64,000 nucleotides of DNA, taken from the IMG/VR virus record IMGVR_UViG_3300032288_005579; one strand, given 5' to 3'. The notes beneath the pieces were generated by a model, which saw only the letters and a list, made by a program, of their open reading frames with translations, had not been told where the DNA came from and made no database searches. This document shows positions 7,306-34,826 of this stretch, piece after piece. The stretch comes from a virus. Made by a program: the position numbers and the translations under genes. Every line of letters begins with the position of its first letter. Position 1 is the first letter of the stretch.

Positions 7306-10300
7306 GTGGCAGTAGACAACGAAAAACCCGAACAACCGAAATCAGCGGCGGCACCTTCCCAAAAGGAGGATGCTCAAGATTTTTTAAAAGTTTTCAAGGA
7401 ACGATTAGGAATCGAACGCTCAATTCGTGACGAGGCCAAGTACAGTATACAAAACCTAGAAAAACAACTCCAAACAATACAGAAACAAAATGCCAAGTTA
7501 GAAAGTCAGAATCGTGATACGATAAACATAAAGACTATAAATTCCGAGATTCTAAGGAATAAACAGGATTTATACGTTACTACTGCAAAGATAGCTGATA
7601 AAGAGAAAGAGGTACTTAAAGGCGATCCTAAAAAGATTGAGGCATTTAAACAGCAAATGCAGGAACATGAAAAGCTAAAAAAAGCGGAAAAAAAGGCAGA
7701 AGACGAACTTAGAGAATCCGCAATAAAAGTAGAATCAGAAAAAAAGAAGTTAGGTGCAGCAGGCGCTGCTCAAGCAGAAAAAACGTTCTCTAAACAAAAA
7801 CAATTAACACAGGATCTAGCTTTTGCTGAGAGCGAAGCCAAAAGAAAGATAGAACTCGCAGATCAAAATCGAACGAAGGATATAGAGGCCACTGAAAAAG
7901 AGATGGCCTCGAAAAAAACAGATCTGCAAAAGAAAGTGCACCAAGATGGAGTAAAATTAGCGTCACTAGATAGATTACTAGATAATAAGAACCTGTCAGA
8001 GCAAAAAAGAGAAAAATTAGAAAGACAGAAATACGAGATAGAGAGTAACAAAAAACAAAGCGAAAACGAACTATCCCTAATAGACGAAACAAAGAAAAAG
8101 CGTCTAGACGCGTTTGAAGCAATACGAGCAAGAGAAGTAGAAGACGCACAATCCACCCTACAAACAACACAGAAGAACATAGCCGAAGAACAAAAGTTAC
8201 TTCAAGAAAATTTAACTGACGGAGAAAAAGCATACCAACAATCGTTAGAAACGATGGATGCGAAGCAGCAACAGCTTGATATCGCGAAGGACCAGTCACA
8301 GTTGAATTTAGATTCCATGGATGAAGAGGCTTTGACTCTTGCTGCGCTACAAAAACAAAAAGACGTAGAAGAAGCTCAGTTAGCAATTAACGAGAAGAGA
8401 AAACAACAAGAAGTTGAAGTCAGTGATACACTGGGTCTTACGGGAACATTAGCTCAAAAATTCACTGAAAAACTTGGAGTCGGAGAAGGCGTTTACAACG
8501 CAATGACCGAAAAGGCCCGTCAACTTGTAGAAGAGCAAGAAAAGAGCGGTAAAAAAATGGGACTCCTATCCAGCAGGTGGGAGGTTCTTAAAGCTGGTAT
8601 CAAGGCCGCGGGTCAAAATCTTAGAGACATGTGGAACGATCCCGTAGCAAGAGCTGCTATATTGGCAGGGATATTGAAGACCGCGTGGAACGGACTGCGC
8701 GCAGGATTCGATAAAGTCGGAGCTGCGGCTGCCGGCGCAGGAAACATGTTGAAGAAGATGTCTTCGGACTCAGCTTCAGTGTTCTCAGACCTAGCGAAAC
8801 CCGCTTTGGACATAGTAAGTAAGATACCGATGGTGGGTGGATTGATATCGGGAGTTTTAAGCGGTATCATAGCGGTAGTCGACATGGTCACGGGCATGAA
8901 CGATGCCCTGATAAAGACGGGAAGGACTCTCGGAATGACCTACGAACAGACTAAAGCGTTAAACCATCAATTCCAAAACTTTTCGGCTTCCTCTGGGGAC
9001 ATATTCAATAACTCCAAAAAACTTTTAGAGAGCTACGGAGAAATTTCTAAAGAGTTGGGAGTTATAACAACTCTGTCTAACCAAGATCTCACTACAAACA
9101 TAAAACTAAGAGATCTAGCGGGATTGGACGTCCAGACCCGTACGAAGTTGATGACCATCGCAAAGACGTCTGGAAAGGATGTACAAACGCTGACTTCCAA
9201 CATACTTGCTCAAACAACGGCTCTTCAAAAACAGACGGGAATACAACTGAACAATCAAAAAGTTCTAGCTGAAGTGACAAAACTGTCAGGCGTTCTAGGG
9301 TTACAGTTCTCAAAGTTCCCAGAGAAGATAACCGCTGCATACGTACAGATGAAGGCTTTGGGAATGGAACTCACTTCTCTTGATCAAAAAGCCGACGGAT
9401 TCTTAAATTTCCAAGACAGTATACAAAAAGAATTCGAAGCACAGTTGTTGACAGGAAAGGATCTCAATCTCATGAAGGTTCGTGAGTTGATGTTGAACAA
9501 CAAGATAGCGGATGCAGGACTTTTAATTGCCAAACAAGTGGGAAGCTCGAAAGACTTCCTAAAGATGAATAGGTTGGAAGCGCAGTCGTACGCCGCAGCC
9601 ATGGAAATGACTAGAGACGAAGTCGCTAACATGCTTAGAGATCAAGAGGCCATGGCGGCTTTTGGAGCTAATAGTACTAAGGAAGTGCAAAAACAGGTCG
9701 AATTGTTAAGACAACAGGGTAAAGAACACGAAGCTATTGCCAAATTAGGAAGTAGAGAGGCTTACGATGCTATGACTAAGGCCACTTTACAAGAAAAGAT
9801 CGCTGCATTCATAGAGAAGATAAAACAGTCTCTTGCCGATTTCGTAGAGAGAACGGGATTGATCGAAAAAATCGAAAAGATGTTCAAGTGGTTGGAAGAT
9901 CCTTCGAAGATAAGAGGTGTGATATTCGCTGTTAGAGACGCGTTCGCTGGCATAGTAGATATCATGATGTCCGTAGTAGGCGGAATAATGACTGCTCTTA
10001 GTAAGTGGCCATTTAACGCAGTTAGTTCTGACGAACTTTTTAAGTTCAGAGATATGCAAAAATCCATATCTAAAAACATTCGTAGCGTTGGAACTGAAGC
10101 TTTACAAGACGCAGGACAAGAACAAAAAGGAAAAGACCCAAATAAAAAAGAATTTGCTTTAGGCGGATACACTGGAGACGGACCTAAAAATAAGATAGCT
10201 GGTTTGGTTCACGCTCAAGAGTACGTTGTAAACGCTGATCAGTTAGAAAAATTGGGAGGAGTGGTGAACTTCCAAAAAACTCTTAGTGAATTGTTAATGT

Positions 10301-10723: not shown

Positions 10724-13102
10724 ATGGGAATATTTCAAAAATACATACAGGGAGATAAAACAAAATTAGGTGTACCGCCGAGTACGACTTCCCCGTCGTA
10801 CGAACCCAAAGAGCTCAAAGATTGGAAAACCGATCTTAGGTATTTAAGGTTCGAACTAGACAGAAAAGACGGGGCGTCTTCCAACCAACCGTACGCCCAG
10901 TTCCCTGTACCTGGACCCTATCCGACTAAACTCAATAAAATTCCCACGATCAGTTTGACTGGGGCTACCACATATCTTGATCAAGTCAATCAAAACACTT
11001 TTTTAAGCGGATACAGGTCCAATTTTAACTTAAGAAAAACTTTCATAGACCTATACAACGCCAACGCTGGTCCTGACTTTCCGATTAGGGGAGGGGGAAG
11101 TTACGACGTAGGCGCTCAATTTACGACGCTGTCGGGTCAAATAGACAGACAAAGAATATCTAGCTTCCTCTATGATTTGAATTCTCCAAAGGGAAAGTTA
11201 TTCATAGACAAGCAGAAGAAACTACAGTTCTCAAACCCGAACATAGAGACAGGCGAGGGCATAGTCATACCCCCGTCAAGTCAGGACAAGACTAGTTTAA
11301 AAAGCCGTTTAGGCGCTCTATTGAACAACGGAGATTTTCCAGCTTTCCAAAAAAACACTAGAGTTTACAACGAAAATAACACGCTGCTTCAAGTCGCGGG
11401 AATGGGAACCGGGCAACACGCTCTTAGAGCGGGATTTTCTCCATTCGATTTGGGACAGGACTTCTACGAGAAGACCGTGGGAATGCAACTTTTCATGGAT
11501 CTTAAAACGGCTGTGTCATCGAATAGACTGACAGTGTTGTACCAATACAAACTCGCTAACGGTAATCCGATAGTAAGCACATCGAGTCAAGACGGATTAA
11601 AATCCTCCTCAAAATCGTTATCTACAGTAAATAAACTGGGAATATCGATGAACAATCTGATACTCTTCGATTATCCAGGAGGTCCCAATTCCGCTTACGG
11701 CATAGGTTTTACTACCATTAGACGTTTTACGAATACGAGTCCCGTGTTTGATAAACCTAACGGAGAAACCACATTCGTAGGAACACCAGTTACTAGAGTT
11801 AGAACGGGTTTGGCCATGAGTTACGAAGCGATATCAAAACAAACTATAAACTCTACAAATTCTCCGGGTCTTCCTAGAGTCACTGATATACAAGATTTTA
11901 AGGAAGCTCAAGATCCTATTTATAAAATCAGGGATAGGGAAACTCTGTATTACGGGCCTGGTCAAACGGACAATATCGGAGAAAACGAAGCCGTAGAATT
12001 AAAGTCAGGAGATAATCCATGGGTAAATACGGAAGATGCAGCCAGCGGCACAGTTACTCGTAAGAAAGCTGCAAACGATCAAATAAAGTTCGGATTTGAA
12101 TGCATAAATTACGATGGAAAGAATAATATATTTTTACAATTCAGAGCATTTTTAACAAACGGATTACAAGACAACCATCAAGCTTCATGGAGCAATTTCA
12201 AATACTCGGGTAGGGGCGAAGATTTTTATACGTACAACGGTTTTAGTAGGAACGTAACTTTCGGTTTTAAAGTTTTAGTAGAAAACCCAGAATACCTATT
12301 GACTACCTACAGAAAATTAAACTACCTTGTTTCGCAGGTGTATCCAGACTACTCGCCTACTACGAACATTATGAGAGCTCCAATAGTTAGATTGACCGTA
12401 GGAGATTACCTATACAGAGTACCTGGAATAATGACTAACGTGAACATAACGGTGGATCAAGCCGCAAGTTGGACAAACCCAGGAATAGATCCAGGCATAA
12501 TTGATAGGTGGGAAAATGAAGAGGGCAATAAAACATACCAATACGAATCAGCTGCTCAGATGCCCCAATACGTGAGCGTTCAGATCACATTCAATCCTAT
12601 ACTCGATGTAATTCCTCAAAGATCTAAACCTGGTCAATTGACGCCTTTATTTATGAATATAGGTGAAGGTTACGATAAAAAGGAATTGACTCCTAAAAGT
12701 TCTAATAGTTCTGAGGAGACTGTAAATTGGCAAGATCGCAAGGGAGATTTGACAGGTCAAGAGCAATTGGATATATTGCAGGGCGTTAAAAGGGATAGAA
12801 GACGAGCTAAACGCGTAGAAAATCGCGCTGATGCCCAAGCAAATAGACAACAAAGAAGATCTGAGAGAGCTGGTAGAAGAGACAATAGAGAAGATGATCG
12901 TCTAATGGGAAATAGCGTACTTAGTCAAGAGGATGCTGACAAGCGAATAAAGCTAGGAGAAAGACTACTAAATGCTCAGATTAGAAAAACAAAGAAATTC
13001 CAAGATCGACAAGATAAAAAATTGTTCAAAAGTCTAAAATCAGACGACAAAATAATTACTCCCGATCAAGGATACAAACCTTGGATGTATCAAAATTATT
13101 AA
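10724..13102 (+). CDS. Baseplate / tail-tube initiator-like virion protein
   Basis: Central QFRAFL...SWSNFKYSGRGEDFYTYNGFSRNVTFGFKV...RLTVGDYL segment typical of contractile-tail tube-initiator proteins; R/D-rich low-complexity C-terminus. Confidence 0.6.
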   Translation: MGIFQKYIQGDKTKLGVPPSTTSPSYEPKELKDWKTDLRYLRFELDRKDGASSNQPYAQFPVPGPYPTKLNKIPTISLTGATTYLDQVNQNTFLSGYRSNFNLRKTFIDLYNANAGPDFPIRGGGSYDVGAQFTTLSGQIDRQRISSFLYDLNSPKGKLFIDKQKKLQFSNPNIETGEGIVIPPSSQDKTSLKSRLGALLNNGDFPAFQKNTRVYNENNTLLQVAGMGTGQHALRAGFSPFDLGQDFYEKTVGMQLFMDLKTAVSSNRLTVLYQYKLANGNPIVSTSSQDGLKSSSKSLSTVNKLGISMNNLILFDYPGGPNSAYGIGFTTIRRFTNTSPVFDKPNGETTFVGTPVTRVRTGLAMSYEAISKQTINSTNSPGLPRVTDIQDFKEAQDPIYKIRDRETLYYGPGQTDNIGENEAVELKSGDNPWVNTEDAASGTVTRKKAANDQIKFGFECINYDGKNNIFLQFRAFLTNGLQDNHQASWSNFKYSGRGEDFYTYNGFSRNVTFGFKVLVENPEYLLTTYRKLNYLVSQVYPDYSPTTNIMRAPIVRLTVGDYLYRVPGIMTNVNITVDQAASWTNPGIDPGIIDRWENEEGNKTYQYESAAQMPQYVSVQITFNPILDVIPQRSKPGQLTPLFMNIGEGYDKKELTPKSSNSSEETVNWQDRKGDLTGQEQLDILQGVKRDRRRAKRVENRADAQANRQQRRSERAGRRDNREDDRLMGNSVLSQEDADKRIKLGERLLNAQIRKTKKFQDRQDKKLFKSLKSDDKIITPDQGYKPWMYQNY

Positions 13103-32065: not shown

Positions 32066-32102
32066 AAAAAAAAAATAGCCCCATTATTTGGGGCTTTTTT
32101 TT
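32066..32102 (+). terminator. Rho-independent terminator (possibly bidirectional)
   Basis: A run, AGCCCCA-TTATT-TGGGGCT, T run. Confidence 0.8.
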
Positions 32103-32248
32103 GCTCACTGAAAATGAAAATTTTTATAAGAACTCAAGAATGTCTATATTTATAGACAAATAAACGATAGAGGTACGACAGGCCTTTAAGTTATGACAGA
32201 GTTAAATTATTCATTAACCAAAAAAACGTCACAGGAGGACGTAACATT

Positions 32249-32686
32249 ATGACACAGTTAACTAAATTCGCAGGTTTTGATCTTGATCCATTCGATCTGT
32301 TGTGGAGGAATTTCATAGACCACGACTCAAGATTCAACACACTACTAGAAAAAGTAAACTATCCCACGGATATTTACGAAACCGAAGAAGGTATCACCTT
32401 CGAACTGGCCGTTGTAGGCTTGGATTCCAAAGACATCTCTGTAGAAACACAAGGAGAAGTGCTGAGGATCAAATACACAAAAGAAAAACACGAGGACGAG
32501 GCAAAGTATATCTACAAGGGTATTGCTAAGCGTTCGTTCGATTTGGCTTGGAAGGTTTCTTCTAAGTTCGACCTCACCAAACTTGAGGCTCAACTTGAAA
32601 GGGGACTTTTGACCATCCGTGTTCCTTTCGCTGAGACCGCGAAAGCAAAAGCAATCCAAATCAAAGAAGTAAAACAAGTAGGATAA
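32249..32686 (+). CDS. hsp20: Small heat shock protein (Hsp20 / alpha-crystallin)
   Basis: YPTDIYE, FELAVVG, YIYKGIAKRSF, AQLERGLLTIRVP. Confidence 0.92.
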   Translation: MTQLTKFAGFDLDPFDLLWRNFIDHDSRFNTLLEKVNYPTDIYETEEGITFELAVVGLDSKDISVETQGEVLRIKYTKEKHEDEAKYIYKGIAKRSFDLAWKVSSKFDLTKLEAQLERGLLTIRVPFAETAKAKAIQIKEVKQVG

Positions 32687-32718
32687 GATAAAGGCCTGTC
32701 GACCTTTATCGTTTAGTT

Positions 32719-32910
32719 ATGTTTTCCCTATGTACACAATTCATCACCGTCCAGGAAAGTCTCTATAAAATAGAGAGAATATTTGATGAGCACAGAGTCC
32801 CTGACGTTGAGCTTTTTAAATACTGGCTCCGTGCTGAAACAGTGTTCAGAAAGGATGGAAAATTGTACTTTTGTAACAAAATAGAAGAAGCAGAAATTGT
32901 AAACGAATAA
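32719..32910 (+). CDS. Hypothetical protein
   Basis: 63 aa between hsp20 and groES; FRKDGKLYFCNKIEEAE. Confidence 0.65.
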   Translation: MFSLCTQFITVQESLYKIERIFDEHRVPDVELFKYWLRAETVFRKDGKLYFCNKIEEAEIVNE

Positions 32911-32916
32911 ACAACT

Positions 32917-33210
32917 ATGAGCAAATTAAAACCATTGAATGGAAATGTGATCCTTAAAAAGGTCGAAGAGTCCGAACAAACTTACGGACAGATAGTCATA
33001 CCCGACATGGGTAAAGAAAAACCGGAACTTGGCGAAGTAGTCGCGGTCAGCGATACGTACAATTGGCACAAAGGTTCGGATGTTGCGTCTAATCTCAAAC
33101 CCGGTCAACTGGTGTTGATTCCAAAAATGGGAGCTATGTCATTCTCTATAGACACTGAGGATTATATCATCATTAAGGAAACTGAGGTACTATCAATCAT
33201 CGAAAAATAA
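32917..33210 (+). CDS. groES: Co-chaperonin GroES
   Basis: LKPLNGNVILK, GQIVIPD..KEKP..GEVVAV, YIIIKETEVL. Confidence 0.92.
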   Translation: MSKLKPLNGNVILKKVEESEQTYGQIVIPDMGKEKPELGEVVAVSDTYNWHKGSDVASNLKPGQLVLIPKMGAMSFSIDTEDYIIIKETEVLSIIEK

Positions 33211-34826
33211 TGAGCACAACTAAAAACGTATTCGGCACAGAACTCAAGGAGAAGCTGTACGCCGGCATATCAAAGCTTAACGAGTCCGTATCTTCTACGC
33301 TTGGACCGGGAGGTCGCACCGTACTGATTCGCGAACAGAACGGAGAGGTTAAAGTTACCAAAGACGGTGTATCAGTAGCAAAAGCATTTCACAAGTTGGA
33401 GGACGACATCGAGGACCTTGGCGCACAACTCGTCAAGCAAGTGGCGATCAAGTCCGCTAACGAAGCTGGTGATGGTACTACGACTTCTACGCTTCTCGCC
33501 GCCGAGATTGTAAATCAAGGCATCAAAGAGGTCCGTGGAGGTCGTAATGCTGTCGCTATCAAGCGTGAGCTAGATAAATTGACCGCTGAAGTGATCGAAG
33601 ACATCAAGAAGATCGCCATTCCCGTAAATTCAGAAGATCAGATTAGGCAAGTAGCGACCATTTCAGGTAACAACGACGAAGAGGTCGGAAACCTTATTGC
33701 TACTGCTATTGAAAAAGTGGGTCGCGAAGGCGTTGTGACCATCGAAGAGTCCAAGACGGGTGAGACCAGCTTAGAAGTTGTGGAAGGCATGCAGTTCGAT
33801 CGCGGCTACAAGTCGCCTTACTTCGTGACCAACAACACCTCCATGCAGGCTGTTTTAGAAGACTGCTATGTGATGCTCTTCGATGGAAGAATATCTACGG
33901 CGCAAGAACTTCTCCAAGCATTGACCAAGTGTAACTCAGAAAACAAACCTCTCTTGGTGATCGCAGAAGATTTTGGAGATGAAGCTCTTGCTACTCTTAT
34001 CGTAAATAAGATGAGAGGCATTGTACAAGTGTGCGCAGTAAAAGCGCCAGAGTTCGGAGAGAGAAAAACACTAGTGCTTGAGGACATCGCAATCCTCACA
34101 GGCGGTCAAGTACTGTCTAAGGACAAGGGTCACAAACTCGATAAGATTCCTTCAGCACAACTGTCTCAATACCTCGGTAAAGCTAGACTCGTAACCGTTT
34201 CCAAAGAGGATACGACAATCGTAGACGGAAAGGGTTCCTCAGAATCCATCGAAGCGCGCGCTAATGAGATCAAAGAGCAGATCGAAAAATCGCAATCGTT
34301 CTTCGAAAAAGAAAAACTACAAGAGCGACTGGGTAAAATGGTAGGCGGTGTGGCCATCATCAACGTAGGCGGTAACTCTGAGATCGAGATCAAGGAGAAG
34401 AAGGACCGATTGGAAGATGCGCTATACGCCACTAAAGCGGCACTCGCAGACGGTATCGTAGCAGGTGGTGGAGCCACCCTGTACAGGCTTTCGATAGCTC
34501 ACAGAGGAACCACTACGGCGGAAGGCGACATCGCGTACATGATCCTTCAGGACGCTTTGCAAGCACCGTTCGAAAAGATCCTCAGTAACGCTGGAATCGA
34601 GAACTGGTGGGACAACCTTCCAAGGGGCGAGAATGAAGTGTTTGACGCTAAGAATCGTAAGATCGTGGACGCGTTCGAAGCCGGCATCATCGATCCTGCA
34701 AAGGTTGTGATCACTGCCCTTAAGAACGCAGTCTCGGTCGCTGGTACAATTCTCACCACAGAAAGCGTGGTATTCGAGAAGAAGGACAAAGACGAGAAGG
34801 CGGATCCTATGGCGGGAATGATGTAA
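33210..34826 (+). CDS. groEL: Chaperonin GroEL
   Basis: [46 protein letters not shown]. Confidence 0.96.

Follow-up and report, generated by a model that had tools for sequence, protein, structure and literature searches.

The window analysed here is a 64,000-nucleotide stretch of a complete uncultured virus of 183,411 bp (IMG/VR record IMGVR_UViG_3300032288_005579). It contains, in this order, a gene for a family A DNA polymerase (PolA), a small membrane ORF, a terminator, a promoter-like box and the genes hsp20, orf63, groES and groEL, and the parts of the hsp20 operon region described below lie on the plus strand. The strong intrinsic terminator (32077..32103), a 7-pair stem with five G-C pairs followed by a T run, closes the upstream unit of PolA and the small membrane ORF, and the hsp20 operon therefore has its own transcript start. 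The hsp20 coding sequence (32249..32686, with the stop codon at 32684-32686) specifies 145 aa and matches the Pfam HSP20 family (8.6e-15) and PHROG 432 (8.4e-18). It is followed by the small gene orf63 (32719..32910), which was taken from the ORF list and is conserved in relatives, and by the downstream cistrons groES (32917-33210) and groEL (33210-34826). Searches of Pfam and PHROG gave no match to orf63. By tblastn, most related loci carry this gene between hsp20 and groES (30-57% identity); one subfamily and Flavobacterium phage immuto lack it. It may be a chaperone accessory.

The promoter box (32145..32153) is a copy of a 9-nt motif that recurs in this phage and resembles the -7 box of Bacteroidetes sigma-A. 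Matches to it number 11 in the window against 2.3 expected, and positions include 1919, 4541, 5134, 6127, 20510, 25331, 31845, 32145, 41645 and 63936; genome-wide there are 39 on the plus strand and 12 on the minus strand, often 4-12 nt before a start codon. The motif is absent between 32145 and 41645, that is, from the hsp20 promoter through the end of groEL. In Flavobacterium the sigma-A -7 box occupies -12 to -5 (PMC9723704). Because the 9-nt box fits this spacing, transcription is predicted to start at about 32156-32158, in the first bases of the 5′ arm of an inverted repeat that encloses hsp20. As a separate point, many genes of this phage begin just 4-12 nt past such a box, and leaderless or near-leaderless mRNAs may thus be a common mode of its expression.

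The two arms of the repeat lie at 32158..32188 (core 32161-32188) and 32689..32718 (core 32689-32715), and the helix between them is part of the minimum free energy (MFE) fold of the whole transcript. The first-pass annotation of this DNA had described a complementarity of about 27 bp between 32161-32188 and 32689-32715, with one bulge and one G-T mismatch, and this is exactly how the letters read: 26 Watson-Crick pairs, one G-T pair (32170/32706) and a bulged A at 32175, bounded by T32161-A32715 at the outer end and A32188-T32689 at the inner end. Beyond one mismatch, two further A-T pairs (32158/32159 with 32718/32717) bring the extended helix directly up to the start codon of orf63 (32719). 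The placement given in that annotation, 7 nt after the motif and 3 nt after the stop, likewise agrees with the coordinates; the promoter-like motif ends at 32154, the 5′ arm begins with the seventh base past it, and the 3′ arm begins with the third base past the hsp20 stop codon.

Each arm half is single-copy within the 64-kb window, and a repeat search of the window recovered the arm pair as two ungapped pieces. When 49 promoter-proximal 40-nt segments from the whole 183,411-bp genome were surveyed for downstream partners, the hsp20 promoter segment reached -46.2 kcal/mol, compared with -28.3 for the runner-up and -30.2 for the best control partner in untranscribed upstream DNA. The inverted repeat flanking hsp20 is far beyond chance, and it is the sole strong promoter-proximal long-range match in the 183-kb genome. 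The predicted transcript of the window, taken whole, has an MFE of -157.7 kcal/mol (z = -4.5), with the helix included. No other gene-enclosing helices were found in this phage genome, and an approximate arm-motif pattern, which was one N longer than the true arm and does not match it, was not enriched genome-wide relative to its control. Elsewhere in the window there is another inverted repeat, of 31 nt (9952-9982 with 12354-12384), which is 81% complementary and has a 12-bp perfect core, its arms standing 2.4 kb apart.

A protein-seeded scan of IMG/VR yielded 80 loci from uncultured phages, with hsp20 products 46-99% identical. The flanking helix occurs at the same two places in all 79 loci with usable flanks (79/79), with perfect or near-perfect arm cores of 11-39 matched bases. 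The arm sequences themselves diverge widely among lineages, and within each locus the two arms match one another; the duplex formed by a locus's own pair averages -34.1 kcal/mol, compared with -25.1 for upstream and downstream regions drawn from different loci. A MAFFT alignment (A2) covers 51 distinct loci; with its 12 consistently aligned inner pairs taken as the structure, 88.7% of cells form standard pairs and both sides have changed in 10 of the 12 pairs (81 cells). The covariation score is 0.331 compared with 0.173 in shuffles, and none of 500 shuffles reached 0.331, although the loci are related by descent and this control therefore overstates significance. The argument is carried by the number of distinct arm variants and by a slide control, in which shifting the partner by 1-3 columns lowers pairing to 26-48%. 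The outer part of the helix shows compensated variation too, although MAFFT aligns it inconsistently. Covariation across homologous hsp20 loci had been put forward as a check on the helix, and compensatory changes are indeed present in about 60 distinct homologous loci. Judged on these alignments, the arm pairing is almost certainly a working RNA structure, kept by matching two-sided changes in about 60 distinct phages.

The helix belongs to the MFE structure of the complete transcript in each of 20 diverse loci, and a bulge of 1-2 nt sits at a constant position in the 5′ arm throughout the family. The first paired base falls at +1 to +11 from the predicted transcription start (median +3), and in typical loci 54-60 nt separate the end of the 5′ arm from the hsp20 start. 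In all loci but one the 3′ arm begins 0-17 nt past the hsp20 stop, and in most it adjoins the next start codon; where orf63 is missing, in one subfamily, several loci have 15-30 nt between the helix and the next start codon. The helix has 27-29 pairs in the window and 11-31, commonly 14-20, in relatives, a borderline length for an RNase III stem, which takes about two helical turns.

Outside this family, the upstream-downstream duplex energies of hsp20 from T4-like cyanophages and from the Methylophilales phage Melnitz (30-34% identity) are no better than those of shuffles; thus, the helix is not general to phage hsp20. A scan of cellular-genome contigs for hsp20 gave one match, 25% identical, and a search for contigs encoding the gene returned long metagenome contigs only, none of them transcript-like. 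In Rfam no family was matched, the sub-threshold hits all being on the opposite strand over the upstream terminator.

A nucleotide search among isolated phages gave no match, and the closest isolated phage is Flavobacterium phage immuto, with a PolA 54% identical to that of the window. In immuto, PolA, groES and groEL follow in the same order, without hsp20, orf63 and both arms. The host is probably a member of the Flavobacteriia, to judge from this phage relative. The PolA-groES spacer of immuto (L092, 7329-7391) keeps the promoter box and has no arm and no hairpin; about 18 nt past the box it carries the first six letters of a 7-nt word described below and the subsequent leader word. This spacer hints at the insertion of a cassette, hsp20 together with its two arms, into such a leader, or at its loss from one.

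The two arms differ in how they fold alone. In the window, 32168-32188 of the 5′ arm forms a 7-pair local hairpin, and this local stem covaries in four of its five pairs among the aligned loci. Local folding averages -5.3 kcal/mol for the 5′ arm compared with -1.8 for the 3′ arm, with the 5′ arm ahead in 57 of 64 distinct loci and, counted by sequence cluster, in 27 of 32. The 3′ arm of the window can form a terminator-like local hairpin of 8 pairs (32687-32710); a decent 3′ hairpin is restricted to this phage, and across the family it is weak. The inter-arm duplex, at -28.4 ± 3.3 kcal/mol, far exceeds both local hairpins combined. As the 5′ arm folds locally while the 3′ arm folds poorly, these predicted energies suggest an order of events in which the 5′-terminal hairpin forms first and the open 3′ arm invades it later.

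Several further features occupy the leader between the 5′ arm and hsp20. A hairpin about 6 nt before the hsp20 start (32226..32242; columns 96-114 of A2) covaries in relatives, where it carries GNRA or UNCG-type loops and lies about 20 nt before the start; 96.7% of its cells are paired and both sides have changed in five of six pairs. It is too stable for a thermometer. Immediately after the 5′ arm stands a semi-conserved 7-nt word (32189..32195), a direct repeat of the word at 32715-32721 that contains the orf63 start codon. This first copy is semi-conserved family-wide and in many loci has no start codon; it may pair with a conserved word before the leader hairpin, or lengthen the helix on its loop side. 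In the window, the ATG of the first copy opens a 19-codon uORF (32193-32252) whose stop overlaps the hsp20 start, and a 15-nt duplication of the hsp20 start context accompanies it. The uORF and the duplication occur in this phage and its closest relative only, other loci having mini-ORFs of 2-5 codons or no ATG at that position, and we dropped them as a family-wide mechanism because they are not conserved. In the subfamily that lacks orf63, a conserved word right after the hsp20 stop is complementary to an A-rich word just before the hsp20 start (first 12 nt after the stop in L010, L012, L029, L034-L036, L040, L046, L048-L050, L056 and L062). Pairing of these words could form a second long-range contact that closes the hsp20 cistron more tightly.

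How should the helix be interpreted? Because each arm is partly self-complementary, the arms could be two independent local hairpins, a 5′ and an intercistronic 3′ stabilizer of one palindromic origin, with the long-range complementarity a functionless by-product. The compensatory changes in the 5′ hairpin and the 8-pair hairpin open to the window's 3′ arm fit this reading. However, loop and near-loop positions that local hairpins would not need covary between the arms (columns 45-48 with 655-658), the 3′ hairpin is weak in most loci, and the inter-arm duplex beats both hairpins together in every fold tested, all of which makes two separate hairpins an unlikely account. The duplex might instead be a split intrinsic terminator or attenuator, in which the 5′ arm supplies the upstream half of the stem from 500 nt away and the 3′ arm the downstream half. 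Capture of the 5′ hairpin by the 3′ arm would then stop transcription after hsp20 and leave a blunt panhandle RNA protected at both ends, so that terminator and stability device would be one, and transcription would read through into orf63-groES-groEL whenever the 5′ arm stayed in its own hairpin. If this were true, a single RNA contact over 500 nt would set the ratio of the small heat-shock protein to GroES/GroEL. The hsp20-groEL interval has no promoter motif, so that differential expression within it needs a device that works after the initiation of transcription; the 3′ arm region of the window is flagged as terminator-like, and the 8 nt past the helix average 3.66 U compared with 2.21 in the background, with at least 5 U in 23% of loci compared with 4.5%; some loci without orf63 have a clear U run past the arm. 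Against this, the tails are mostly 3-4 U of 8 and come partly from the conserved start-codon word, the 3′ arm does not offer family-wide the stable local G+C-rich hairpin and U run of a classical intrinsic terminator, and the helix would have to form quickly enough during a polymerase pause. Furthermore, the chaperonin genes have no other promoter, and termination could thus only be partial. A natural terminator whose stem closes across about 500 nt is not known to us, and we doubt that this is one.

Inverted repeats of about 27 bp around a discrete gene also bring to mind protein-binding sites in DNA, such as looping operators, the invertase sites of an invertible hsp20 switch or the inverted repeats at the ends of a cargo element. 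If both copies of a recognition site changed in concert, the result would look like covariation, and the strand-specific RNA signals are weak. The first-pass annotation had read the G-U wobble as a sign of RNA, an argument that carries little weight: the closest divergent relative has A-U there, and the counts are not decisive (13 G-U vs 10 A-C in the aligned inner helix and 4 vs 0 in its central seven pairs, many apparent A-C cells being register artefacts of bulges). Similarly, the mean advantage of the sense over the antisense duplex is 1.1 kcal/mol, and by cluster the sense duplex is the more stable in 16 and the less stable in 15. Other observations argue against DNA sites. The hsp20 gene is on the same strand as PolA, groES and groEL in 80 of 80 loci and inverted in none, although a count from assemblies records only the majority orientation and a rare inversion would escape it. 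None of the six adjacent genes encodes a recombinase or transposase, so that both marks of an invertible switch, two orientations and a nearby recombinase, are missing. No direct repeat that would represent a target-site duplication flanks the arms, and the element is single-copy in the genome and holds the same operon position in all loci, in place of the several copies or variable insertion sites of a cargo element. The bulge distinguishes the two copies family-wide, which argues against gene conversion between DNA repeats, since frequent conversion would erase it. Finally, the arm stems vary freely with compensation around a conserved centre, as an RNA helix does and contacts to half-sites do not. 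It is this variation pattern and the position of the arms at the predicted transcript start, the stop and the start codon, and not the wobbles, that favour RNA, and we regard a DNA-level element as very improbable. The earlier proposal of an RNA duplex that loops out hsp20, as opposed to inversion sites, is thus upheld by the compensatory changes, the constant orientation (80/80) and the location of one arm at the predicted 5′ end. Less can be said for an RNA thermometer, in which heat shock would melt the helix and so uncouple or activate hsp20. Small heat-shock genes are classic clients of RNA thermometers, and the helix contains one wobble and one bulge. However, the temperature-melting switch that had been suggested is contradicted in silico by a pairing probability that is predicted, for six diverse loci, to stay at 0.88 or above between 15 and 65 °C. 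In addition, the hsp20 start region is left uncovered, 54-60 nt downstream of the 5′ arm, and so does not lie in the weak start-region helix, melting in the physiological range, of ROSE, fourU and Hsp17-type elements; the leader hairpin has stable loops, and no thermometer family of Rfam was matched. A thermometer is therefore hardly credible here.

This leaves the reading that we prefer, to which we would give about an even chance: the arms form a cis-acting RNA panhandle of the hsp20-(orf63)-groES-groEL mRNA, likely to act as a processing and stability element and as a gate on the next start. The sequences show the complementarity of the arms, its compensatory conservation, its placement and its thermodynamic dominance; the roles in processing, stability and gating are inferred. 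The first 30 nt or so of the mRNA would fold immediately into a modest 5′-terminal hairpin. About 500 nt later, polymerase would make the poorly self-folding 3′ arm past the hsp20 stop, which would pair with the 5′ arm to give a duplex of 14-30 bp with its conserved 1-2 nt bulge and the whole hsp20 cistron looped out. Such a duplex would hide the mRNA's 5′ end, and in most of the phages it would also cover the bases just before the next start codon.

Acting as a double-strand-specific processing and stability element, the 14-30 bp duplex would be a candidate site most likely for host RNase III; a search for a phage-encoded RNase III (PF14622) found none in the genome, and a control search detected the family in Bacteroides thetaiotaomicron. 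Cleavage would part hsp20 from the chaperonin cistrons, which lack a promoter of their own, and leave the hsp20 mRNA with both ends clamped, and from established RNA biology a base-paired 5′ end would be expected to resist end-dependent decay. On this model, processing by RNase III and a stability clamp are both plausible, although the duplex of many relatives has just 14-18 pairs, which is short for RNase III. Nothing was found in favour of the circularization of the mRNA that had also been suggested.

In the phylum to which Flavobacterium belongs, initiation depends on an unstructured start region (PMC6847099), and a helix that ends at the orf63 start should therefore block free initiation there. 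The panhandle would in this way gate orf63 translation, and only cleavage, or ribosomes that finish hsp20 2-17 nt upstream, could lift the block. In several loci without orf63 the next start lies 15-30 nt past the helix, and start-codon gating is therefore not a universal role.

Long-range pairing between the 5′ and 3′ regions of a bacterial mRNA is, to our knowledge, confined to a few examples in single genes, such as icaR, hbs and hok, and comparative evidence led to none of them. That about 60 distinct phage genomes keep the pairing through compensatory change is unusually strong evidence for a structure that encloses an entire protein-coding cistron. The panhandle is also a candidate for a new family of cis-regulatory RNAs. 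The operon in which it lies encodes chaperones of the phage, and the nearest cultured relative of these phages infects Flavobacterium. The phylum of that host does without Shine-Dalgarno-guided initiation, and RNA-level control in it has been little explored. The panhandle would thus be a natural and well-defined test case for communication between mRNA ends, for the segmental expression of operons and for structural start-codon gating in the Bacteroidota.

Two mRNAs, icaR and hbs, are precedents for 5′-3′ pairing that controls RNase access, and we count them for the panhandle reading. In icaR mRNA of Staphylococcus aureus, pairing of the 5′-UTR with the 3′-UTR leads to RNase III cleavage and a translational block (PMC3868564). 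As in icaR, the 5′ UTR of the hsp20 transcript is complementary to a region past the stop codon of the same transcript, and the icaR duplex is an RNase III substrate that affects translation, as is proposed for the panhandle. However, in icaR it is the Shine-Dalgarno region of the enclosed gene that is covered, through a short motif, whereas the hsp20 helix leaves the ribosome-binding region of hsp20 free: the 5′ arm of the panhandle occupies the extreme 5′ end and stops 54-60 nt short of the hsp20 start, and the 3′ arm is an intercistronic operon spacer whose adjoining start belongs to the next gene (orf63). The panhandle is also longer (14-30 bp) and covaries across a large phage family. The hbs mRNA of Bacillus subtilis has a 14-bp interaction between its 5′- and 3′-UTRs that modulates the access of RNase Y (PMC5737220). 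Here, too, a long-range 5′-3′ helix is present, and in the small, highly expressed hbs it modulates ribonuclease access and so links stability to translation; hbs, on which RNase Y and RNase J1 act, is monocistronic, unlike the panhandle mRNA, and host phylum and operon context differ as well.

The panhandle also has likenesses among RNAs that are processed from longer transcripts, although its own cleavage is hypothetical. In the RNase III stems of 16S and 23S rRNA, complementary flanks loop out a functional RNA, and cleavage of the duplex frees it from the polycistronic transcript. Complementary flanks likewise form the long duplex of the panhandle and loop out a whole RNA; in the rRNA stems the enclosed RNA is non-coding. 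Asymmetric bulges are typical of phage RNase III sites, although those of T7 differ in being local intergenic hairpins that enclose no gene. Fold-back inhibition in hok makes an RNA compact and stable and gates its translation until processing; hok, however, is the toxin mRNA of a toxin-antitoxin system that relies on 3′ exonucleolytic activation and includes an antisense RNA, and none of these parts is seen here. Compared with all these systems, the predicted panhandle is distinctive in its anchor at the extreme 5′ end, in its use of an intercistronic spacer in place of a 3′ UTR, in leaving the start of the enclosed gene uncovered and in the breadth of its comparative support.
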